Shown: positions 15,455-51,644 of the stretch, one piece after another | Layout: every line of letters begins with the position of its first letter | How positions within the stretch are numbered: position 1 is the first letter of the stretch | NCBI GenBank assembly: GCA_016432625.1 | Contig: CP066697.1 | Span: 151,113 to 215,112, forward strand | Length of the DNA stretch: 64,000 bases | Origin: Candidatus Berkelbacteria bacterium | GTDB lineage: Bacteria > Patescibacteriota > UBA1384 > 2-12-FULL-50-11 | Direction: 5' to 3' | Notes under the pieces: generated by a model | The model's input: only the letters and a program-made list of their open reading frames with translations | Databases searched by the model: none | What the model was told of the DNA's origin: nothing | Made by a program: the position numbers and the translations under genes

Positions 15455-16415
15455 GCTTGGCGCGTAGCGGTGACTTTGCCGCTCGCAGTACAACATCAGC
15501 TAATTTCTCCGCGTCGTGGTAGAGCGGCCGCTGCTCGTCTATTACGTCAGCCAAAATAACTGGCATGCCCTCAATTTCGGTTTTGTCGGTTGTAATATTG
15601 CACACTTGTCCGAGCTTGCCCTCGTTGTTTGATTGGGCAACGACGGTATCATTAACGATCACGCCGTCGAAACGTGTGCCATTGACGTATTCGCGCAAGC
15701 GCCGGACGTGGTCTTCGACGCGATAGTTCTCGGTCTCGCCGCGCTCAGTGGAGGCGTTGCAGACGTAAAGTTTGCTGCCCTTGGCCTTCTCGAAAGCATC
15801 GCGAATCTCCTTAATTAAAAAGTTAGGCACAACGCTGGAGTAAAAACTACCTGGGCCGACAAGAATTAAGTCGGCTTCCTCAAGAGCGCGAACCGCCGCC
15901 GGATTAGCTGTCGCGTCCGGTGGCAGAAGCTGCACCCGTTTGATCGGCGAGCGGTGTCCCAGTACTGAAACGTCAACTTGCCCAAGGGCTGTCTGGCCAT
16001 TTTCAAGCTCGGCCGTTAGATTGACGTTGTCGAAAGTCGAAGGGATAACCTTCCCTTTGACGGCTAAGAATTGACTGGAGGCTTCAACGGCCGACTCAAA
16101 GTCGCCGGTAATATCGGCAAGCGCTAGTAGCAGTAAATTGCCCAAACTGTGCCCAGACAATCCTCGGCCCTGCTTGAAACGGTAAGCGAAAAGTTTGGTC
16201 GCTAGCTCCTCGTCTTTAGCCAGCGCTGTCAGGCAGTTACGGACGTCGCCCGGCGGCAGGATGCCTGTTTCTCGACGAAGACGGCCGCTGGAGCGGCCGT
16301 TGTCGGTCATCGTTACTATGGCGGTAAGTTTAACTGGATAGCTTTTTAAGCCTCGCAGCAAGGTTGCCAAGCCGCTTCCCCCGCCCAAGGCAACAATCTT
16401 CAGATGATCATTCAT
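15435..16415 (-). CDS. yvcK: YvcK/CofD-like (UPF0052) gluconeogenesis-factor family protein
   Basis: IVALGGGSGLATLLRGLK N-terminal motif and PGSFYSSVVPN motif. Confidence 0.8.
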   Translation of the reverse strand: MNDHLKIVALGGGSGLATLLRGLKSYPVKLTAIVTMTDNGRSSGRLRRETGILPPGDVRNCLTALAKDEELATKLFAYRFKQGRGLSGHSLGNLLLLALADITGDFESAVEASSQFLAVKGKVIPSTFDNVNLTAELENGQTALGQVDVSVLGHRSPIKRVQLLPPDATANPAAVRALEEADLILVGPGSFYSSVVPNFLIKEIRDAFEKAKGSKLYVCNASTERGETENYRVEDHVRRLREYVNGTRFDGVIVNDTVVAQSNNEGKLGQVCNITTDKTEIEGMPVILADVIDEQRPLYHDAEKLADVVLRAAKSPLRAKLNVLTR

Positions 16416-16942
16416 GGCAGTAAAGGATAGACGAAATCATTCTTCTCGTCATCTTTACCCCAGGCCTGCACTGTAAAAGACTCCTCCGCGCTAGCGGTTT
16501 GCCGATTAACTGAGCCGTGTACCGTAATCCTAAAAAGGCCGATATCGTGAAAGTCGCTGACTTTAAACCGGTAAGAATACCGGCCTGTCTCGTCGGCGTT
16601 AACTTGTCGGGTCTCCGGGCGCTCGTAATTACCGTTCGAACCAGCGGCGACGATGTTCAACTCGGCGAAAGGCAGCGCGGTAACTGTAACGACTTGGTAC
16701 TGCCCAAGCTTCATTACCTTGCGGGACAACTCAAGCTTCAACTTAAAGTCCTGTCTTGAGGAGTTTCCAGCTTCTGCGAGTACTGTTTGGGCGATGGATA
16801 TCGGTTCTCTCTGGGCAGCCGATTGCTTATTCCAAGCAACCCCGGCACCAGTCAAAACGACAACCGCTCCGGTAAAGACCGTGTTACGGATAGTTTTGAT
16901 TAAGGCTTGAGTCTGTTCCGGGGTTCTACGCGAGCGGGACAT
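16412..16942 (-). CDS. Membrane-anchored hypothetical protein
   Basis: 176-aa ORF with a 4-nt overlap with yvcK. One TM helix near the N-terminus. Confidence 0.5.
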   Translation of the reverse strand: MSRSRRTPEQTQALIKTIRNTVFTGAVVVLTGAGVAWNKQSAAQREPISIAQTVLAEAGNSSRQDFKLKLELSRKVMKLGQYQVVTVTALPFAELNIVAAGSNGNYERPETRQVNADETGRYSYRFKVSDFHDIGLFRITVHGSVNRQTASAEESFTVQAWGKDDEKNDFVYPLLP

Positions 16943-18771: not shown

Positions 18772-19302
18772 TTAGTAATCGGAAGAACTTCTTGATTTCC
18801 CAAGTCCACCTGTCGCAATGAGCGCGATAAGCGGCGCTATCATCCACCATGGGGTGTGGCTAATAAAAATCCGGGCGATTCGTGAGTTCTGGGCGAACTG
18901 ATCCCGCGCCGCCGGATCCATAAACGAGAAAATGGCGGTTAAAATTAAGGCTGAATTTAAAAAACTAAAAATCGCCAGCTCAAAAGCCGAGAGTGCGCCG
19001 CGACCGCTTGAGCCTTTGCCCATACCGGAGCGGATCGAGACCAGTACCGTCGTTAACAAGAATATTCCCGCTGAAATTGTAAAAGGCGAGGCGTTGGCTT
19101 TAATGAATAGCTGGTTGCCGATTGTTTTATCGCCTTGGAAGAACTGCTGCAGCGGCGCGCCCAACACCTGCGCCATCACGATACCGGCGTAAATCGCCAG
19201 TAACGTCACCACAACCTTATCGCGCTGCAACACGAAGCTGTAGCCGATCGAAACGATGAAAAATATTGCTAAAAACAGATCCCAGCTTGGTACGGTTTGC
19301 AC
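18772..19302 (-). CDS. Polytopic membrane protein, function unknown
   Basis: 176-aa ORF with about 5 hydrophobic helices. Confidence 0.6.
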   Translation of the reverse strand: MQTVPSWDLFLAIFFIVSIGYSFVLQRDKVVVTLLAIYAGIVMAQVLGAPLQQFFQGDKTIGNQLFIKANASPFTISAGIFLLTTVLVSIRSGMGKGSSGRGALSAFELAIFSFLNSALILTAIFSFMDPAARDQFAQNSRIARIFISHTPWWMIAPLIALIATGGLGKSRSSSDY

Positions 19303-19351: not shown

Positions 19352-19957
19352 TTAGCGTTGCAGATTGCGGAGTTGCTCGTACAGATCACGTTCTTCGCGT
19401 GAGGGGCGCTTGGGGATTTCAATATGGATAACAACCGTCAAATCTCCCCGACCGCGGCGAGTTTGGGCGCCTTTGCCACGAAAACGAAAAGCCGCGCCTT
19501 CGGGTGTGCCGGGTGGAATCTTCAGCTCGATCTCATCGCCAAAATTGGTTTTGAAACGAACCGTGTCGCCAAGCACCGCTTGCGGGATCGAAACTGCCAA
19601 TTGAACCTGGACTTGAGAGAAGGCTGATTCGAACAAATCCTCAAAAATTGAGCCAAAACCTCCGCCGCCCTGACCACTAAAACTGCTGAAGTCGAAACCC
19701 CCAGCTTGACTCCCGAAACCGCTTTGGCTGCCAAAACCGGCTCCGGCCCGTGCCCCAGCGTGGCCGAACTGATCGTACTGGGCTCGTTTGTTTTTATCCC
19801 CCAGTACCTGGTAGGCCTCGTTTATTTCCTGGAACGCCGCCTTATCCCCACCTTTGTCGGGATGTAATTTGTGCGCTTTCGAACGGTAGGCCTTTTTAAT
19901 TTCGCCATCGCTGGCACCGCGGGGAACACCTAAAACTTCGTAAAAATCTCGAGCCAT
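19352..19957 (-). CDS. dnaJ: DnaJ-like co-chaperone, truncated architecture (J domain, G/F region, one C-terminal beta domain, no zinc finger)
   Basis: [35 protein letters not shown] with the HPD tripeptide, followed by a G/F-rich stretch. No CxxCxGxG repeats. 201 aa. Confidence 0.8.
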
Positions 19958-19979
19958 ATTTTCGATATTTTACCCTAAA

Positions 19980-20008
19980 AATGTCAAGTTTGCTTTACAG
20001 AGTATAAT
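19980..20008. promoter_or_regulatory. Divergent dnaJ-like / ybjQ promoter region containing operator copy O3 (TGTCAAG-TTTG-CTTTACA, 19982-19999)
   Basis: On the minus strand the palindrome reads TGTAAAG-CAAA-CTTGACA, with GACATT at the position where the other two copies have TACAAT/TACATT. On the plus strand a TATAAT at 20003-20008 lies 6 nt before the ybjQ ATG. Confidence 0.5.
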
Positions 20009-20014
20009 GAATTC

Positions 20015-20338
20015 ATGGATAAGGAAAATATTACAACCTCTTTTGAGCTACCGAATAAGAAAATTGTTAAAAATTTCGGCCTAGTCCGCGGCATAACCGT
20101 TCGCTCCCGATCGATTTTTGGGACAATCGGCGGCTCGCTGCAGACCATTCTTGGCGGCAATATCACCCTGTTTACCGAGCTGTGTGAGAAAACGCGCCAG
20201 GAAGCCTATGCCCTGATGGTCAAACACGCGGAAGAGATGGGCGCCAACGGCATTGTTATGGTTCGCTATGACGCCAACGAAGTTATGAGCGGTGTAACCG
20301 AAGTGCTCTGCTACGGCAGTGCAGTGGAGGTTGAATAA
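20015..20338 (+). CDS. ybjQ: YbjQ/UPF0145 family protein
   Basis: 107 aa. GLVRGITVRSRSI...GGNITLFTELCEKTRQEAYALMVKHAEEMGANGIVMVRYD matches the YbjQ pattern. Confidence 0.8.
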   Translation: MDKENITTSFELPNKKIVKNFGLVRGITVRSRSIFGTIGGSLQTILGGNITLFTELCEKTRQEAYALMVKHAEEMGANGIVMVRYDANEVMSGVTEVLCYGSAVEVE

Positions 20339-20565
20339 TGGACGAGGTAAAAAAAGTTAAAGTGAATATGCCTAGAGGCATTACGATCGTAAACCGTTAC
20401 AAAGGACCGGGCGGTGGCGCTTATTTCCTGGGTTTCCTAGGGGCTTTCATTTACTACATGCAAACGGCGGCTACTTTCGGCGATGGTGTTATCGGATTTC
20501 TAAAAGCCCTTGTCTGGCCGGCGTTTTTGGTTTATCACATCTATAAATTCTTGGGGCTCCAGTAG
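20338..20565 (+). CDS. Small membrane protein
   Basis: 75 aa with two hydrophobic helices. The start overlaps the ybjQ stop (TAATG). Confidence 0.5.
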   Translation: MDEVKKVKVNMPRGITIVNRYKGPGGGAYFLGFLGAFIYYMQTAATFGDGVIGFLKALVWPAFLVYHIYKFLGLQ

Positions 20566-20574
20566 AATTTAGGC

Positions 20575-21240
20575 CTAAACCACCGATACCTCACCGTTTT
20601 CCACAACTAAATACGTTGCTACCGGGGGTTCGAATATCCCGGAATTTGCGAAATGGTTTTCCTTGTCAACGACTGCCAAATGGCTGTGAGCGCAAATTAG
20701 CCAGTGTTCTTTAGGCAAATTGGTGTTTTTCCAGGCAATCATCTTTTCGTTGTCCTTTCGGTAGATGTGTAAAAACGGCTTGCCGAAGTTTTGTATACAA
20801 AAGCGCTCAATTTTTACCGCGATCTCATAGAACCAGTAAAAATAGGCGATTCGAGGCAGGCGCATGTCTAAAGTCGGGGCAAGTTTGTCGCCATGGCGGA
20901 CATGGAACGTGACGCCGTTTTGAATAAAATCGTATTCGTTACTTGTCAAAACTGAAAACTCGTTCGTTCGCGAGTCATTTTTATATTCCCGGTCGTGGTT
21001 GCCGTAAAGGTAAACTGCCTCCTTGTTTTTGAATAAGCCAAAAAGCTTTCTCCAGTCGAAGGTTAGAAATTCTTCCAAAGTGTAAGCAAAACCTTCCCAA
21101 AGATCGCCGTTAATTATTAGCTTGTCAGCTGGACTCACGGCGCTATTAATTTGGGCGAATTTTATCTCGTTAAACTTTTTACCTAAATGTAAGTCGGAAA
21201 TTATTACCACCTTTTTCCCGCTGAGGTCTTCCGGTGTCAT
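20575..21240 (-). CDS. Calcineurin-like metallophosphoesterase
   Basis: Motifs ISDLHLG, NGDLWE, GNHD, HGD and AHSH in the canonical order. Confidence 0.7.
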   Translation of the reverse strand: MTPEDLSGKKVVIISDLHLGKKFNEIKFAQINSAVSPADKLIINGDLWEGFAYTLEEFLTFDWRKLFGLFKNKEAVYLYGNHDREYKNDSRTNEFSVLTSNEYDFIQNGVTFHVRHGDKLAPTLDMRLPRIAYFYWFYEIAVKIERFCIQNFGKPFLHIYRKDNEKMIAWKNTNLPKEHWLICAHSHLAVVDKENHFANSGIFEPPVATYLVVENGEVSVV

Positions 21241-21324
21241 TGCTTTGCAATTTTACTACAAAGCGGTCCAGCATAAGAGGAATGGGGAGGGTACAGGAAT
21301 CCGCCCGGCGAGTGCCGAGCGGAT

Positions 21325-21787: not shown

Positions 21788-22159
21788 TCAAACGCTTTTC
21801 TTTTGGCCGTCTCTAACTGAGAGTTGGTCAGAGTACGTGTTACGGAGCTTGATATATTCATCAATCGTGTAGGCCCTCTGCCAATCACACTCCAACACAT
21901 CAACCAAATGGAAAAAATTATTTTCAAGTTTCGCTCTGCGCTCATCAATCTGCTCCCGCGAGCGAAGATCACGGATACCTAAGTATTTTTCATAGATTCC
22001 TTTCGCTCTCAGATGGAAAGAATCCAGTTTGGTTTCGATTAACTCTCTATTTTTCCACCAAGAATTACGGGCGGTATCCAGAATTTCGTTGGCGTGAGTC
22101 CGTACACATTTGCCCTGGCATCTTCTTTCGGCCTGAGCGAAAAATCTTCTGTGACGCTT
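21788..22159 (-). pseudogene. Start-less open frame continuing the 163-aa ORF in the -1 frame (frameshifted gene, programmed slip, or homopolymer error)
   Basis: 123 stop-free codons with no ATG, GTG or TTG in the first 80 or so. They encode ...NEILDTARNSWWKNRELIETKLDSFHLRAKGIYEKYLGIRDLRSREQIDERRAKLENNFFHLVDVLECDWQRAYTIDEYIKLRNTYSDQLSVRDGQKKSV. The frames join at an A5 run (T5 on the plus strand, 22050-22054). Confidence 0.45.
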
Positions 22160-22530
22160 TCAAAAGTTCCTTTTGGGCATAATATTACTACCACCTTTGG
22201 CATAACGGCCGTGCCGAATTGAATCAACCTGTTCTGGTAGTGAGTCTTTGTCCAATAGAATAAAACTTCAAGGCCTTCACTCTTTTCTTGAAAGGCTTCC
22301 CAGAAGTGTTGAAAATCCATTTTATTGGTAATAAACCCAGAAATTTCTCGATCAATACCCTTGCACCTCAGCGAGATAGTGGCGTAGGGAACGTCTTTTA
22401 CCTTAGATATTACTTCGCCATTTTCAACCGTACTACCAAGCGGTCGGAGTTCGTTAGCTATACATAACTTGCTATCGATAACCGACCACTCATTATCTCT
22501 AAGTAGGACAACTTCTTCTGAGTTATTCAT
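22039..22530 (-). CDS. Hypothetical protein (AT-rich islet), probably the 5' part of a longer frameshifted gene
   Basis: 163-aa ORF with ATG start. No recognisable motif. Confidence 0.5.
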   Translation of the reverse strand: MNNSEEVVLLRDNEWSVIDSKLCIANELRPLGSTVENGEVISKVKDVPYATISLRCKGIDREISGFITNKMDFQHFWEAFQEKSEGLEVLFYWTKTHYQNRLIQFGTAVMPKVVVILCPKGTFESVTEDFSLRPKEDARANVYGLTPTKFWIPPVILGGKIES

Positions 22531-24000: not shown

Positions 24001-25998
24001 TTAGTCTTTTTTGTCCCCGTCATCTTTTGGTTCTTCCGGCACATTTGTGTCCGGGGTGCCATCCGCCTTCGCCGAGGCTTCGTCGGATGAATCGTCTTTG
24101 GGGAGTTCTTCTTCCGGCTTCGGCTGTCCCTCCTGCGCTGAAGCTTCCTCCTTCGCAGATGCTTCGGAGGACGAGTCGGCGGGCGAGTCATACATCGCGG
24201 CGCCGACTTTTTGGAGGGCGGCACTCAATTTTTCCGCCTCCTCTTTGATTTTGTCTTTATCGTCGTTGTGGATGACGGCTTTGACGGCGGTAACGGCGTC
24301 TTCGACTTCGCGTTTGTCGTCCGGTTTGATCTTATCGCCCGCGTCTTTGAGGGTTTTTTCGCTCAAGTGAATAAGGTTTTCGGCGGCGTTTCGTTCTTCG
24401 ACCAGCTCTTTTTTCTTGGCGTCGTCGGCGGCGTGAGCCTCGGCCTCGGTTTTCATCTTTTCGATCTCTTCTTTGGATAGCCCACTCGAAGCCGTAATGG
24501 TGATGTGTTGTTCTTTGGAAGTGGCTTTGTCTTTGGCTTTGACGTTCAGAATTCCGTTTGCGTCGATGTCAAACGTCACCTCAACTTGCGGGACGCCGCG
24601 GGGAGCCGGTGGAATACCATCGAGATGGAACTTACCTAGCGTCCGGTTGTCGGAGGCCATTGGCCTTTCGCCTTGTAAGACGTGGATTTCCACAGATGGC
24701 TGGTTGTCGCTGGCCGTGGAAAACGTTTCCGTTTTTGAAGCGGGAATAGTGGTATTGCGCTCAATGAGCGGCGTCATTACTCCACCCAGAGTTTCGAGAC
24801 CCAAGGTTAGCGGGGTGACGTCGAGCAGAAGAATATCCTTAACTTCGCCTGATAAGACGCCGCCGTTAATGGCCGCGCCTAAAGCAACCGCTTCGTCGGG
24901 GTTAACGCCTTTCGATGGCTCTTTGCCAAAAACATCTTTAACAACTTGCTGAATCATCGGCATGCGGGTCATCCCACCGACCAAGATAACTTCGTCAATG
25001 TCAGATTTGGTGAGTTTGGCGTCTTTCAAAGCGGCTTCGCAGATGCCTCGGGTTTTCTTGATGAGGTCGCCAACTAAACTTTCCAATTTTGCGCGCGACA
25101 GATTCATCTGCAGGTTTTTTGGACCGTCAGCGTCAGCGGTAATAAACGGCAAGTTGATCTCGGCTTCCTGGGTTTGAGAGAGCTCGATCTTGGCTTTTTC
25201 AGCTGCTTCTTTGACCCGTTGCATAGCCATAGCGTCGCCAGTTAGATCGACACCCTCTTTGGCTTTGAATTCGTCGACGATCCAGTTCATCACTTGAATG
25301 TCGATGTCGTCTCCACCGAGGTGAGTATCACCGTTCGTCGAGAGCACTTCGAAGCTGGATTCGCCTTTGTCTTCGCCAATTTCGATGATGGTGATATCAA
25401 ATGTTCCACCACCAAAGTCGTAAACGGCGACTTTCTGGTCTTTTTTGTCTTCTTTGTTAATGCCGTAGGCGAGAGCCGCGGCGGTTGGTTCGTTGATAAT
25501 GCGCTTAACTTCGAGGCCAGCAATGGTGCCGGCGTCTTTGGTAGCCTGGCGCTGGGAGTCGTTAAAGTATGCCGGGACGGTAATAACAGCGCCGTCGACT
25601 TTTTCGCCGAGATAAGCCTCGGCATCAGCTTTGATTTTGGCCAGGATCATTGAGGAGATTTCTTGGGGGGTAGACTCGTTTTCGGCCATTTTGACCTTAA
25701 CGCCATCGCCGCTCTTTACAATTTTGTAAGGCATCAGTTTGATGTCGCGCTGAACTTCTTCGTCAGTGAAGCTACGACCCATTAAGCGTTTAACAGAGTA
25801 GATAGTATTTTCCGGATTGGTGACAGCTTGGCGCTTGGCGAGCGTGCCAACAAGGCGTTCGCCTTTTTTATTGACCGCGACGATGGACGGCACTAAGTTG
25901 CCGCCCTCAGCGGTTGGGATCATTTTGGCTTTACCGCTTTCGATGACGGCTGAAGCCGAGTTAGTTGTTCCCAGGTCAATTCCGATTATCTTAGACAT
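24001..25998 (-). CDS. dnaK: Chaperone DnaK (Hsp70) with an acidic low-complexity C-terminal tail
   Basis: [22 protein letters not shown]-type motif ([12 protein letters not shown]), [11 protein letters not shown]. The start is set at the ATG at 25998 rather than the in-frame GTG at 26004. Confidence 0.95.
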
Positions 25999-26056
25999 TT
26001 GCACCCCATTCTATGTCTGAGATATCCAAAACGGTGTTTTTGATAATCTTTCCCAT
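25991..26056 (-). CDS. Possible 21-codon upstream ORF overlapping the dnaK start
   Basis: ATG at 26056 with an AAGGAGGAGAG tract about 10 nt upstream. Encodes [21 protein letters not shown]. Its stop (TAA, 25993-25991) lies 2 codons after the dnaK ATG in another frame. Confidence 0.35.
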
Positions 26057-26099: not shown

Positions 26100-26127
26100 A
26101 TTGTAAAGTTTCCTTTACATTTGTCAA
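26100..26127 (-). promoter_or_regulatory. dnaK promoter with embedded operator copy O1 (TGTAAAG-N4-CTTTACA, 26102-26119)
   Basis: Minus strand reads TTGACA-AA-TGTAAAG-GAAA-CTT-TACAAT. The -35 and -10 boxes are 16 nt apart and the perfect 7-bp-arm palindrome overlaps the -10 box. Confidence 0.65.
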
Positions 26128-26217: not shown

Positions 26218-26967
26218 ATGACCCTTCGAGAAACTTTACAATCCAATCGCCAACCCGACGTCGCCCTGGCGGACGACGTCGCCTTCGCCGTGATCGACTC
26301 GATCCGCCCGTTGATGGGCGCTGAACCACCTCCGGCTCGCGTCGACGGCGACCAAAGCCAACGGATGCGCTCCGCCCGCCTGGCCTACTTCATGCTTCGA
26401 GAACGAAGCGCGCACCTCGACACCTGTTTGCGCGTCATCGGTTCGGAAGAATTTCCGGTCGATGTACTCATTGCCGACTTGAAGGATGCCGAAAAGCGAC
26501 TTCATGCTCGGGCTCACAACGAGAACCAGACACTTAGTTGGCTGGGTCTTGCCGCTGTCGATTTCGATACGGTACTGATAGATGGGAACCAGCACGTCGA
26601 CTTCGACAAAGTCGTTTGTTACGGTTCCGCGACGCAAGAACAAGCCTTCTTTGGCACGATCGCCGGCCTGATGCCGCGACTGGCGTCCGAGGACAACACA
26701 AGCTTCACTAGTCACCTAGCAAAGTCTCTGTGCGCGGCCACGCGCCAGAAGCTCTGCAACGACTGGAACGGTACTGAGCTTTGTCTTGATGCCACGGCGT
26801 TCGGCTTCGCGCTGGGAACACGCGACCTGTATAGGCAGGCACAGACCCTGGCGTTCGAAAACAAGGAGCCGCTGCAACTGGATCATTTCGGCCGAGCAAA
26901 AGGCTGGGAGTCTCTCGCGCTTTTCGCGAGCTATCCGACGATCCGCGCCGCTATCCTGCCCAAATAA
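26218..26967 (+). CDS. Hypothetical protein (GC-rich insert between grpE and dnaK)
   Basis: 249-aa ORF with ATG start, on the strand opposite the chaperone genes, followed by a terminator. Confidence 0.5.
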   Translation: MTLRETLQSNRQPDVALADDVAFAVIDSIRPLMGAEPPPARVDGDQSQRMRSARLAYFMLRERSAHLDTCLRVIGSEEFPVDVLIADLKDAEKRLHARAHNENQTLSWLGLAAVDFDTVLIDGNQHVDFDKVVCYGSATQEQAFFGTIAGLMPRLASEDNTSFTSHLAKSLCAATRQKLCNDWNGTELCLDATAFGFALGTRDLYRQAQTLAFENKEPLQLDHFGRAKGWESLALFASYPTIRAAILPK

Positions 26968-27106: not shown

Positions 27107-27658
27107 ATGCAGAAATTCACCCCGCTTGGCGGACCAATGCTTCAAGGCATTGAGATGCTAGCACGACAACACGGCCTTCGCGGCCAGTTCAGTATTCTCC
27201 TTGCCGTGCGAACGCAGGAAATGATTGCGGACCACGACGAGAGATGCAGCGGCTGGTCAGTAATGGCTAGCGCCCGCAAAGACGGGAAGATACTCATTTA
27301 CCCATGGATGTGGGAAAGGTTTCTTGAAGAGGACGTCGCGACTGCGGTTGGCTGGATGGCCAATACGCTCGCCGAGGAAATCGGGCATCTCATCGATTAC
27401 GAGCGGTTTCCGGCCTGGACGGAAAGCTTGCTGGATTGGCGGTTTCTGCTGATTCGCAATCTCCGAGACCGGCTCGGGAAATCGATCCCGCGCCTACAGC
27501 CGTCGCTCGTCAAGCTCTACGAATGGGCTTACAGGCGCAGCTTCTTTGAGAAAAGAGCGAAGCGCTTCGCCGAGGATCATGAAGAGCAGTACTTCGCTGC
27601 TATCTGGCCTCACTTCCACTACTACAGGGAGGTCTATCTCAACTTGTCACGGGAATGA
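27107..27658 (+). CDS. Hypothetical protein (GC-rich insert). It contains an AEEIGH motif that loosely resembles a degenerate HExxH/ImmA-type site.
   Basis: 183-aa ORF. AGGAGG lies 6 nt upstream of the ATG and a TATAAT lies further upstream. Confidence 0.55.
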   Translation: MQKFTPLGGPMLQGIEMLARQHGLRGQFSILLAVRTQEMIADHDERCSGWSVMASARKDGKILIYPWMWERFLEEDVATAVGWMANTLAEEIGHLIDYERFPAWTESLLDWRFLLIRNLRDRLGKSIPRLQPSLVKLYEWAYRRSFFEKRAKRFAEDHEEQYFAAIWPHFHYYREVYLNLSRE

Positions 27659-27681: not shown

Positions 27682-28218
27682 TTACCCCTTTGAAACGCGG
27701 ACTTTGGCCGGTTTTATTACTTTGCCCTTAAGCATCCAGCCGGATTCAATTTCATCGATGACGGTTTCTGCTGGCAGGTCGCACGCTTCGTAGGAGATTG
27801 CTTCGTGCAAGTTATGATCGAAATGCGCCCCTTGGGTCGGAATGCGCGTCAGGCCGGCGTCGGCGACGATCGTTTCGAGCTGTTTTTCGATTTGGCGTAA
27901 ACCTTCAAAATAGGCGTGAATCTTTTGAAAAGCCTCTTCGCTTAAGGTTGTTTGGTCGTCGTCAAGTGAAATTGTCGGGGCGTGGGTTGAAGCGCGGTAG
28001 AAATTGTCCAGTACAGGGAAGAGTTTATGCAGCCAGTGGGCTAACGTCCGTTCCTCGAGCACGGCTCGGTCGTCGTGCATGCGCCGTTCTAGGTTAGAGT
28101 AATCCGCCGCCAAGCGTTTGCGACTGTTTTCGGCAGTTTCAAGTTTGGTCTTAATCTCGGCCAATTCTTTTTTGAGCTTATCGATTTCGTTGTCGTTTAA
28201 TTTCTTTTTAGGAGTCAT
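27682..28218 (-). CDS. grpE: Nucleotide exchange factor GrpE
   Basis: Coiled-coil N-terminus. DNFYRA (family DNFRKR-like position) and a C-terminal beta domain GWMLKGKVIKPAKVRVSK. Confidence 0.9.
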   Translation of the reverse strand: MTPKKKLNDNEIDKLKKELAEIKTKLETAENSRKRLAADYSNLERRMHDDRAVLEERTLAHWLHKLFPVLDNFYRASTHAPTISLDDDQTTLSEEAFQKIHAYFEGLRQIEKQLETIVADAGLTRIPTQGAHFDHNLHEAISYEACDLPAETVIDEIESGWMLKGKVIKPAKVRVSKG

Positions 28219-50900: not shown

Positions 50901-51605
50901 CTACTTCTTCTTCACCTGAATCTTCGTGGTCTTCGGCTTAGCCGGTTCCACTTTCGGCGCCACTATCTTAAGCGTCCCGTTTTCGAGTTTGGCCTCAACC
51001 TTGTCTTCTTTGATCGGCGTGGCAAATCGAATTGAACGACTGAACTCACTGTGTTGCCACTCACGACGCACAACATTCTTGCCTTCTTTCTCATTTTCGT
51101 CGTGCTTTTTAGTGCCAGTGATAGTTAGTGTATCTTCCGTCATCTCGATCTGAACATCGTCTTCGGCGTAACCCGGAACCTGTAATTCGATTTCGTACTC
51201 TTTGTCGGTTTCATGAATATTCATGGCGCCGGCAACGGTGCCCAGTGCTCGCGACCAATCACCACGACCAAAATTACGGTTGACCATCTCGCTCATCTCT
51301 TCTTGCATTCGATCCATTGCCTGAAACGGACTCCATGGTGCTAATTGCATCTTCGACTGCTCACCTCCTTCCTGAATTTCGTTATCGGTTGCTTGCTGAA
51401 CAATGTTTATGCCTTCGATTAAATCCGGCAAATTACAGCGGAAAAATTCCATCAGTGAAATCAAAACTGGCGCGCTAGGCAGATACTCGCCACGTTCAAG
51501 CGAGATTATCGATTGGCGAGATACGTTTAATTCCCGAGCCAATTCTTCTTGGCTCAGATCTCGCTGGGTGCGTAACTGGCGTAGTAATAAACGGAATCGA
51601 GGCAT
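50901..51605 (-). CDS. Fusion protein: N-terminal XRE/Cro-type helix-turn-helix domain plus a complete Hsp20/alpha-crystallin small heat-shock protein
   Basis: Residues 1-65 (LRQLRTQRDLSQEELARELNVSRQSIISLERGEYLPSAPVLISLMEFF) fit the HTH_3 pattern. Residues about 125-215 (HETDKEYEIELQVPGYAEDDVQIEMTEDTLTITG...FSRSIRFATPIKEDKVEAKLENGTLKIVAPK) fit the alpha-crystallin domain. The C-terminal KIQV is an I-x-I/V motif. Confidence 0.8.
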   Translation of the reverse strand: MPRFRLLLRQLRTQRDLSQEELARELNVSRQSIISLERGEYLPSAPVLISLMEFFRCNLPDLIEGINIVQQATDNEIQEGGEQSKMQLAPWSPFQAMDRMQEEMSEMVNRNFGRGDWSRALGTVAGAMNIHETDKEYEIELQVPGYAEDDVQIEMTEDTLTITGTKKHDENEKEGKNVVRREWQHSEFSRSIRFATPIKEDKVEAKLENGTLKIVAPKVEPAKPKTTKIQVKKK

Positions 51606-51615
51606 TTATACGCCT

Positions 51616-51644
51616 AATGTAAAGTAAACTTTACATAGCGTCAA
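51616..51644 (-). promoter_or_regulatory. Promoter of the HTH-Hsp20 gene with embedded operator copy O2 (TGTAAAG-N4-CTTTACA, 51618-51635)
   Basis: Minus strand reads TTGACG-CTA-TGTAAAG-TTTA-CTT-TACATT (17-nt spacer). The ATG lies 10 nt after the -10 box, which implies a near-leaderless mRNA. Confidence 0.65.

Follow-up and report, generated by a model that had tools for sequence, protein, structure and literature searches.

The intergenic region between a dnaJ-like gene and the divergent ybjQ gene of a Candidatus Berkelbacteria bacterium (contig CP066697.1) contains a short inverted repeat, here termed operator O3, which raises the question of whether this repeat is a true regulatory site and, if so, which promoters it controls and which protein binds it. 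We addressed this question in a window of 64 kb (positions 151,113 to 215,112 of the 769-kb contig), and all coordinates below count from the first letter of this window. O3 is a real, statistically supported and evolutionarily conserved site. Beyond that, it is probably a functional operator shared by two back-to-back promoters and bound by a repressor in which a helix-turn-helix (HTH) domain is fused to a small heat-shock protein (sHSP).

One palindrome ahead of three chaperone transcription units

The palindrome occurs at three places in the window:

19982..19999, no strand assigned: operator O3, TGTCAAG-TTTG-CTTTACA on the plus strand and TGTAAAG-CAAA-CTTGACA read toward dnaJ-like, one mismatch.
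26102..26119, no strand assigned: operator O1, ahead of dnaK, a perfect palindrome.
51618..51635, no strand assigned: operator O2, ahead of the HTH-sHSP gene, a perfect palindrome.

On the minus strand, the letters of 19980-20008 read ATTATAC-TC-TGTAAAG-CAAA-CTTGACA-TT. The core is an 18-bp palindrome of 7+4+7 architecture which, compared with the reference TGTAAAG-N4-CTTTACA, carries a single T to G change in the dnaJ-like-proximal arm; re-reading of the interval confirmed both the sequence and the single mismatch, as described earlier from the letters alone (hereafter the sequence-only reading). That reading had proposed a motif scan. With the pattern TGTAAAGNNNNCTTTACA and up to two mismatches allowed, exactly three matches were found in the 64 kb, at 19982 (one mismatch), 26102 (none) and 51618 (none), which lie ahead of dnaJ-like/ybjQ, dnaK and the HTH-Hsp20 fusion gene, respectively, each within a promoter. 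Shuffled sequence contained a mean of 0.14 sites, and three sites were reached in none of the shuffles (0/100). The window search also bore out that all three chaperone units (dnaK, dnaJ-like and the sHSP fusion) carry the site and that the region upstream of grpE (27682-28218, minus strand) does not.

Additionally, we scored the window with a symmetrised weight matrix of 24 nt derived from 36 sites. O3 reached 27.1 bits and the other two sites 34.5 and 34.2 bits, while the next best position in the window gave 1.7 bits; since the matrix was built on sites picked by the same pattern, the size of this gap counts for more than the absolute scores. Arm position 4/15 is the most tolerant in the matrix. 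The half-site centres of TGTAAAG-N4-CTTTACA lie 11 bp apart, about one helical turn, and the arms often reach out to AAA...TTT, giving a palindrome of up to 24 bp. The 4-nt centre tends to differ by gene: dnaJ-like sites have CAAA (in the direction of dnaJ-like), fusion-gene sites have TTTN, and the majority of dnaK sites have GGAA or GGAG.

Conservation of O3 in orthologous loci

We compared the locus with 17 orthologous dnaJ-like loci (L001-L017, 52-76% identity). The sequence-only reading had named loss of the site from orthologous regions, with O1 and O2 conserved, as the outcome that would speak against it; the palindrome is instead kept, with at most two mismatches, in 16 of the 17 loci. 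When the dnaJ-like loci are anchored on the palindrome, both arms hold about 2 bits per position, compared with 0.2-0.7 bits in the flanking intergenic DNA. L004 and L011 have the variant arm of O3, CTTGACA, at their orthologous sites as well, and the mirror variant TGTCAAG is present in L010 and ahead of the fusion gene in L089. Ahead of dnaK, the palindrome is perfect in 9/9 loci (the window, L014, L015, L161-L165 and L168). A control set of 63 DnaJ loci (507 kb) from outside the candidate phyla radiation (CPR) yielded zero matches at ≤2 mismatches.

The genes next to O3 and O1 are the following:

19352..19957, minus strand: dnaJ-like, 201 amino acids (aa), Pfam DnaJ 1.4e-23 and DnaJ_C 1.1e-12.
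18772..19302, minus strand: gene of a CvpA-like membrane protein, with a weak Colicin_V match below cut-off.
20015..20338, plus strand: ybjQ (YbjQ_1/UPF0145), 107 aa, Pfam YbjQ_1 1.3e-27, first gene of the divergent unit.
20338..20565, plus strand: orf75, 75 aa with hydrophobic stretches.
24001..25998, minus strand: dnaK, whose translation is 70-91% identical to Patescibacteria DnaK proteins.

The dnaJ-like product consists of a J domain, a Gly/Phe-rich stretch and the C-terminal part of DnaJ_C, has no zinc-finger domain and falls below the NCBIfam cut-offs for full-length DnaJ. The CvpA-like gene follows 50 nt downstream with its own Shine-Dalgarno sequence, and this order is kept in L001-L017; the two genes probably form one operon. 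On the other side, ybjQ and orf75 constitute one operon because the orf75 start overlaps the ybjQ stop. No family match was obtained for orf75 in Pfam/NCBIfam-type family scans.

In the orthologous loci, the site lies between divergent ybjQ/orf75 and dnaJ-like, the latter with or without a preceding Metallophos gene, or else ahead of dnaK-dnaJ-like. The order of the window, with ybjQ and/or orf75, the site and then dnaJ-like and the cvpA-type gene, is shared by L004, L009, L010, L011 and L017, whereas L001, L005, L006 and L007 have ybjQ/orf75, the site and Metallophos-dnaJ-like, and L014 and L015 have grpE, the site and dnaK-dnaJ-like. The site also precedes Metallophos-dnaJ-like in L002 and L003, where no ybjQ/orf75 homologue was found beside it. 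Taken gene by gene, ybjQ adjoins the palindrome in L001, L004, L006, L009 and L010, and orf75 homologues do so in L005, L007, L009, L010, L011 and L017; L009 has two sites, one per divergent gene.

Further changes are seen in the window and in L010. The Metallophos gene (20575-21240, minus strand), which stands between palindrome and dnaJ-like in L001, L002, L003, L005, L006 and L007, sits beyond ybjQ-orf75 in the window; ahead of it there (21241-21300) is no palindrome, only a TAAAAT box at 9 nt from the ATG, so that a local rearrangement appears to have taken it out of the regulon here. In L010 (3842-4000), about 150 nt separate the conserved TAAAAT box from the dnaJ-like ATG, compared with 6-10 nt in the other loci, and the insert holds a GC-rich hairpin (gggtcgccttgcggcgaccc) and tRNA-like fragments.

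Position of the palindrome in the promoters

The predicted -10 boxes on the two sides of O3 are:

19967..19972, minus strand: TAAAAT, likely -10 box of dnaJ-like, between the palindrome and the ATG with 9 nt to either.
20003..20008, plus strand: TATAAT, -10 box of ybjQ, with 3 nt to the palindrome and 6 nt to the ATG.

On the ybjQ side, the sequence-only reading held up: TATAAT stands 6 nt before the ybjQ ATG and the palindrome covers its -35 region. Promoter prediction gave ATGTCA-N16-TATAAT with 10/12 matches, and the same layout, palindrome plus 3-8 nt, -10 box, 6-9 nt and ATG, is found on the ybjQ/orf75 side of L001, L004, L005, L007 and L011. Judged by these distances, the ybjQ mRNA looks leaderless, which would put the palindrome at about -33 to -16.

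On the dnaJ-like side, the sequence-only reading had taken GACATT as the -10 box, in the same register as at dnaK and the fusion gene. This is probably wrong, since ten orthologous loci conserve TAAAAT instead, and on the same grounds we rejected a promoter made of GACATT with TTATAC as its -35. The module palindrome+TTTTT+NN+GG+TAAAAT is present in 10 loci including the window at about 2 bits per position, and in these loci TAAAAT lies 6-10 nt before the start codon, with no Shine-Dalgarno sequence. Because of this conserved spacing, TAAAAT at 19967-19972 is most likely the -10 box of dnaJ-like, and the promoter is most likely leaderless or near-leaderless, with the operator at about -39 to -22. 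In four other dnaJ-like loci the palindrome is followed by 1 nt and TATAAT, and the ATG comes 8-10 nt further on in L008, L009 and L013. A further minus-strand candidate, TTGACA-N18-GAAAAT, was discarded: its -10 abuts the ATG, which would put the start inside the gene, and it is not conserved in L004/L011.

Leaderless transcription is plausible here because -10 boxes at leaderless distance are frequent in the window. In the first genes of transcription units, the start codon is often preceded at 6-10 nt by a TAnnnT -10 box while a Shine-Dalgarno sequence is lacking, as seen for grpE (upstream of 28218), 16412-16942, 22039-22530, the Metallophos gene (21240) and the genes starting at 20015 and 19957; genes inside operons, window-wide, do have GGAGG-type sites. 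This pattern suggests that leaderless mRNAs are widespread in this Berkelbacteria genome. As both mRNAs at O3 look leaderless, one bound dimer would cover both promoters.

The promoters at O1 and O2 have a different layout. At O1, the promoter has TTGACA (26122-26127) as its -35 and TACAAT (26100-26105) as its -10, both on the minus strand; the operator lies between them, with an arm that runs into the -10. At O2, the two elements are again on the minus strand, with TTGACG (51639-51644) as the -35 and TACATT (51616-51621) as the -10, the latter at 10 nt from the ATG. The dnaK and fusion-gene promoters thus share the order TTGACA/G, 2-3 nt and a palindrome whose distal arm forms TACAAT or TACATT, with 16-17 bp spacing. 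Across all loci, the palindrome either overlaps or abuts a -10 or -35 element of a promoter whose -10 stands 6-13 nt ahead of the start codon, or is placed between TTGACA and TACAAT. The sequence of the palindrome is constant, but the -10 may overlap it or follow at +1 to +3 or at +9; because of this variation the palindrome is best regarded as a separate protein-binding module and not as a fixed sigma-factor element. That it covers core promoter DNA in every layout is indicative of repression and would fit occlusion of RNA polymerase.

An HTH-sHSP fusion protein as the candidate regulator

The gene behind O2 encodes the putative regulator and contains a conserved internal feature:

50901..51605, minus strand: HTH-sHSP fusion gene, candidate regulator, 234 aa, Pfam HTH_3 9.8e-15 and HSP20 8.1e-21.
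51348..51368, minus strand: internal Shine-Dalgarno GGAGGTGA (51361-51368) with the in-frame ATG of Met86 (51348-51350).

The HTH of the fusion protein (residues 8-62) is of the XRE type, with a PbsX-family regulator, CylR2 and DdrOC as sequence matches in the PDB, and forms a five-helix domain in the AlphaFold model (predicted local distance difference test, pLDDT, >90). It is followed by a linker (residues 69-90) that is predicted to be disordered in the same model (pLDDT <50) and by an alpha-crystallin domain (130-231) modelled as a confident beta-sandwich (pLDDT >90), with Hsp16, Hsp16.9, Hsp21 and HspA as PDB matches. In sHSPs, the C-terminal I-x-I/V is the oligomerisation motif, and W-x-P-F lies in the N-terminal region. 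The sHSP part of the fusion is complete in this respect, with an N-terminal W-x-P-F region, the alpha-crystallin domain and a C-terminal I-x-V motif; in the 36-sequence alignment A1, I229 and V231 are nearly invariant, and P93 and the PW-x-PF stretch are conserved. The recognition helix SRQSIISLE is invariant in this alignment across about 30-100% overall identity.

A 100% identical database entry is annotated as 'Hsp20 family protein'. An exhaustive profile search returned 58 clusters (50% identity) at E ≤1e-30, mostly full-length two-domain proteins of 195-260 aa, and a word-based search from a divergent member returned more than 100 further 90%-identity clusters. We then asked where the palindrome stands relative to these genes. 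Among 18 fusion loci (L081-L095, which are 15 full-length metagenome relatives of 28-76% identity, together with L166, L167 and L169), the palindrome with 0-1 mismatches lies between the -35 and -10 of the gene's own promoter in 18/18, down to about 30% identity. In six cases, the fusion gene and a palindrome-bearing dnaK or dnaJ-like gene occur on the same contig, one of them being the complete Berkelbacteria genome CP011213.1 (P0393, P0216). The sole DNA-binding domain found adjoining any of the sites is the N-terminal XRE HTH of the fusion. Taken together, these placements make it rather probable that the HTH-sHSP fusion is the regulator that binds the palindrome.

Two apparent counterexamples were examined and rejected. 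Berkelbacteria genomes with the palindrome and without the fusion were suspected, but CP011213.1 does encode P0393, a 233-aa HTH+HSP20 protein with its own palindrome. Relatives called as stand-alone sHSPs (147-179 aa) were considered as unfused versions and turned out to be artefacts or a pseudogene (L167, L166). In L167 the full-length open reading frame (ORF) is intact and the gene was called from an internal start. In L166 (2348-3040), one in-frame TAG replaces the conserved Tyr of 'ERGEY' in the HTH, and the gene call is split into a 40-aa HTH fragment and a 179-aa sHSP; this TAG may be a sequencing error, mark a pseudogene or reflect a naturally split gene.

Two groups of smaller proteins share the HTH module. 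Stand-alone XRE proteins of 67 aa with the helix SRQTIGSLENGRY are related but have a different recognition helix, SRQTIGSLE, and are located on unrelated contigs (genes and their upstream sites: L100 653-716 and 732-935; L106 3756-3975). Just upstream of their genes are the palindromes TGGAAAG-N4-CTTTACA and TGTAAAG-N4-CTTTCCA, with two copies in L100. They are possibly relatives of the HTH module that is fused to the sHSP. A subfamily of about 140-160 aa (L095 437-916, L125 37-465; P0478-P0500) has the same HTH and recognition helix and keeps only the last alpha-crystallin strands and the C-terminal I-x-V/I tail, with a perfect palindrome upstream in L095; through this tail, such proteins may dock onto separate sHSP oligomers.

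A probable internal start in the fusion gene

We scored the window gene and 14 relatives (loci named: L081-L093, L166, L167 and L169) for translation signals within the fusion gene. Where the sHSP N-terminal region begins, an in-frame ATG is preceded at a distance of 4-13 nt by a Shine-Dalgarno-like run (GGAGGTGA, AAGGAGG or AAGGAG), which is kept at the nucleotide level in 14/14 relatives scored. Predicted anti-Shine-Dalgarno pairing at the internal Met averages -10.7 kcal/mol, compared with -2.2 at other in-frame Met codons. The purine run stays where the encoded residues differ (KGGE, GKEAF, GKETK, and HEEVRNF in CP011213.1), which argues for selection on the RNA and not on the protein. In some gene calls only the short product appears (P0099, P0107 and others), although the long ORF is intact (L167). 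The gene thus probably yields two products: a leaderless or short-leader start would give the 234-aa HTH-sHSP, and the internal site would give a canonical sHSP of 149 aa.

Proposed mechanism and alternative explanations

In the model that we favour, one XRE-type repressor dimer on the 18-bp palindrome of O3 would cover P(ybjQ-orf75) and P(dnaJ-like) at once, the latter probably continuing into the CvpA-like gene. The repressor would be the HTH::sHSP fusion (50901-51605), which would also bind O1 at dnaK and O2 at its own promoter, with the alpha-crystallin domain dimerising the HTH on the palindrome. Heat or unfolded proteins would engage the sHSP part, and the resulting substrate complexes or changed oligomeric state would make the repressor leave the DNA; falling operator occupancy would then lead to joint induction of dnaK, dnaJ-like, ybjQ-orf75 and the fusion gene, and repression would be restored once proteostasis has recovered. 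Within this model, we infer the binding protein, repression as the direction of control, the transcription start sites and the stress signal from sequence features. The sensor step is drawn by analogy with IbpA and with chaperone-titration circuits such as HspR-DnaK, HrcA-GroEL and sigma32-DnaK. The term heat-shock regulon is likewise taken solely from gene content, namely dnaK, dnaJ-like and the sHSP.

Several observations weigh against this model. The 52%-identical orthologue L016, on a 3.9-kb contig, is the one locus without the site. O3 itself is mismatched and scores 7 bits below O1 and O2, and it may be bound more weakly. The dnaJ-like side has no recognisable -35 box and the palindrome occupies that position, where an activator role is possible. 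The assignment of the regulator rests on autoregulatory placement and co-occurrence, and the fusion loci were collected with the helix pattern SRQSIISLE, which makes the joint invariance of helix and operator partly a selection effect.

The palindrome might be a genuine operator of some other regulator, for example a stand-alone XRE protein encoded elsewhere, with the HTH-sHSP gene as a mere member of the regulon. The 64-kb window is only a part of the 769-kb contig, L100 and L106 encode small stand-alone XRE proteins that have a related helix and comparable palindromes, and an sHSP gene is often a target within heat-shock regulons. Yet the fusion has the only HTH that adjoins any site, its own promoter carries the site in every locus collected, and its helix is invariant, whereas the stand-alone XRE proteins have a different helix and lie on unrelated contigs; we therefore regard another regulator as unlikely. 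The mismatch of O3 could alternatively mean that this site is a decaying remnant which no longer regulates dnaJ-like/ybjQ, with O1 and O2 still at work, and both its lower score (27.1 bits against about 34) and the rearrangement of the locus relative to many relatives, which left the Metallophos gene apart from the operator and without a palindrome, would fit such decay. However, the CTTGACA variant is kept in L004 and L011 and its mirror form in L010 and L089, position 4/15 is where the arms tolerate change best, and the surrounding 33-bp module is intact, so that loss of function at O3 seems distinctly improbable.

As to the direction of control, the palindrome might serve an activator or be a special promoter element used under stress, which could explain why it takes the -35 position on the dnaJ-like side, where no -35 consensus is seen. 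At dnaK and the fusion gene, however, the palindrome lies inside a near-consensus promoter (TTGACA-N16/17-TACAAT) of optimal spacing, which is a repression layout and unlike MerR-type activation, for which spacers of 19-20 bp are used; the shifting distance to the -10 in turn speaks against a special promoter element. We consider either role very unlikely. Least credible, and given hardly any weight, is that the palindrome acts as RNA (a hairpin, terminator or thermometer) or is chance or repeat-element sequence. In RNA form, the 7-bp inverted repeat might fold around its 4-nt loop, but the -10 boxes 6-10 nt from the start codons put the palindrome upstream of both predicted transcription starts and hence in untranscribed DNA, and neither an Rfam match nor a terminator-like T-run was found there. 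A chance or repeat origin is likewise contradicted by the copy number, only three in the window and each in a promoter, and by arms that are conserved as sequence, with no compensatory changes. A shared operator bound by the HTH-sHSP repressor thus remains the reading that we prefer.

Comparison with known systems

Searches for the operators of known heat-shock repressors returned little. CIRCE (TTAGCACTC-N9-GAGTGCTAA) gave zero matches at ≤3 mismatches in the 64 kb and HAIR (CTTGAGT-N7-ACTCAAG) zero at ≤2 mismatches in the window. The CtsR box (GGTCAAA-NAN-GGTCAAA) gave two 3-mismatch matches versus 2.0 expected, both in coding regions away from the chaperone genes. An Rfam scan of the whole window reported only tRNAs and tmRNA, with nothing at the sites, and no hrcA adjoins grpE or dnaK in the window.

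The fusion and its sites have the features expected of an XRE repressor-operator pair (an HTH_3 domain, half-sites about one helical turn apart and an operator on the regulator's own promoter) and of the sHSP family (an alpha-crystallin domain with the I-x-I/V and W-x-P-F motifs). The combination is not covered by the collections consulted: both domains together are found in no PDB chain, the fusion stays below the cut-off of every curated NCBIfam model, and a survey of the companion domains of transcription factors does not mention HSP20. Neither an HTH-sHSP regulator nor the palindrome was found described in the full-text literature searched, a collection with most subscription-journal papers outside its scope.

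Among characterised systems, HspR/HAIR of Actinobacteria, Helicobacter and Campylobacter also has a palindromic operator on the dnaK promoter, a small dnaK/dnaJ-centred regulon and an autoregulated repressor with chaperone feedback, the last being a proposal in the present case. HspR, however, is MerR-type where the fusion is XRE-type, and its chaperone is recruited separately (DnaK is the co-repressor of HspR), whereas here a chaperone-like module is fused. HrcA/CIRCE likewise represses class I chaperone genes by way of an inverted repeat that overlaps the promoter, but differs in operator sequence, operator length and protein family. RheA, which controls hsp18 in Streptomyces albus, and CtsR of Firmicutes are self-sensing heat repressors of chaperone or sHSP genes and of their own genes; they belong to protein families, and use operators, unrelated to those described here, and neither has an alpha-crystallin domain. 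The Cro/CI-type XRE proteins CylR2, DdrO and the PbsX family share with the fusion the HTH_3 domain and a short palindrome that has its half-sites one helical turn apart and overlaps the regulator's own promoter. Their targets are phage, toxin or DNA-damage genes, in contrast to the chaperone genes here, and none of the solved XRE proteins or curated families has a C-terminal sHSP.

ClgR of Actinobacteria, which acts as an activator, resembles the fusion in being an XRE-type HTH devoted to protein-quality-control genes (clp/lon), but it is a small stand-alone protein with another motif and no sHSP domain. Its gene Rv2745c/clgR has been described as a regulator of Clp protease genes (PMC3976341). 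For the sensing step, the closest parallel is E. coli IbpA, an sHSP that is reported to serve as an aggregation sensor whose titration by aggregates relieves self-repression (bioRxiv 10.1101/2020.04.20.050740). As in our proposal, the sHSP itself is the sensor; IbpA, however, acts on the translation of its own mRNA and has no DNA-binding domain, whereas the fusion has an HTH and would control the transcription of several operons. An autoregulated repressor with a palindromic operator on chaperone promoters is therefore a known kind of logic, while the regulator family, the operator sequence and the covalent sHSP module are apparently undescribed.

Sequence changes around dnaK

The surroundings of dnaK showed changes of their own. 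The dnaK leader (25991-26056, minus strand) contains a 21-codon upstream ORF behind a strong Shine-Dalgarno sequence, AAGGAGG. This ORF begins where the dnaK genes of relatives begin (MAKIIG), ends overlapping the real dnaK start (ATGTCTAA) and is flanked by a short direct repeat, AGACATAGA. It looks like an insertion or duplication of about 60 nt at the dnaK 5' end, which would make dnaK translation depend on coupling or re-initiation.

Between grpE and the dnaK operator, two ORFs without a family match (26218-26967 and 27107-27658, plus strand) lie in slightly GC-richer DNA. In L162 grpE is directly followed by the operator and dnaK, and in L161, L163, L164 and L165 the gap holds other small family-less ORFs, so the grpE-dnaK gap looks like an insertion hot spot. 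On the Berkelbacteria contig of L168 (2567-3000), the dnaK operator is about 430 nt away from dnaK, and the space between them consists of tandem copies of a GC-rich repeat of about 45 nt (ggatccccaatccgaagcgctttgctttcggttgaggatgac...), which looks like a small inserted repeat element.

Significance

Almost nothing is known about gene regulation in Patescibacteria/CPR, which are uncultured and have small genomes with few recognisable regulators. The present locus offers a compact regulon built on one 18-bp motif, with a single candidate regulator and four transcription units (dnaK; dnaJ-like; ybjQ-orf75; the regulator gene), conserved from Berkelbacteria to metagenome-assembled genomes labelled Saccharimonadales, and it would draw the uncharacterised YbjQ/UPF0145 family and a small membrane protein into the proteostasis response. 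Because the system is small, it could be studied in E. coli or in vitro without culturing the host, and might serve as a portable sensor of heat or protein aggregation.

A broader picture, which we offer tentatively and rate at somewhat less than an even chance, is that much of the Patescibacteria controls its core chaperones by a one-polypeptide XRE HTH-sHSP sensor-repressor, which would be a class of heat-shock regulator not recognised before. The sHSP would report the unfolded-protein load or temperature directly to operator occupancy, as an intramolecular form of chaperone titration; the long (DNA-binding) and short (chaperone-only) isoforms would co-assemble, with their ratio setting the response, and at O3 one dimer would be enough to switch two divergent leaderless promoters. 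If the HTH-sHSP is the repressor, it would be a mechanistically distinct addition to HrcA, HspR, CtsR and RheA and, if true, the first case of an sHSP that is physically part of a transcription factor.

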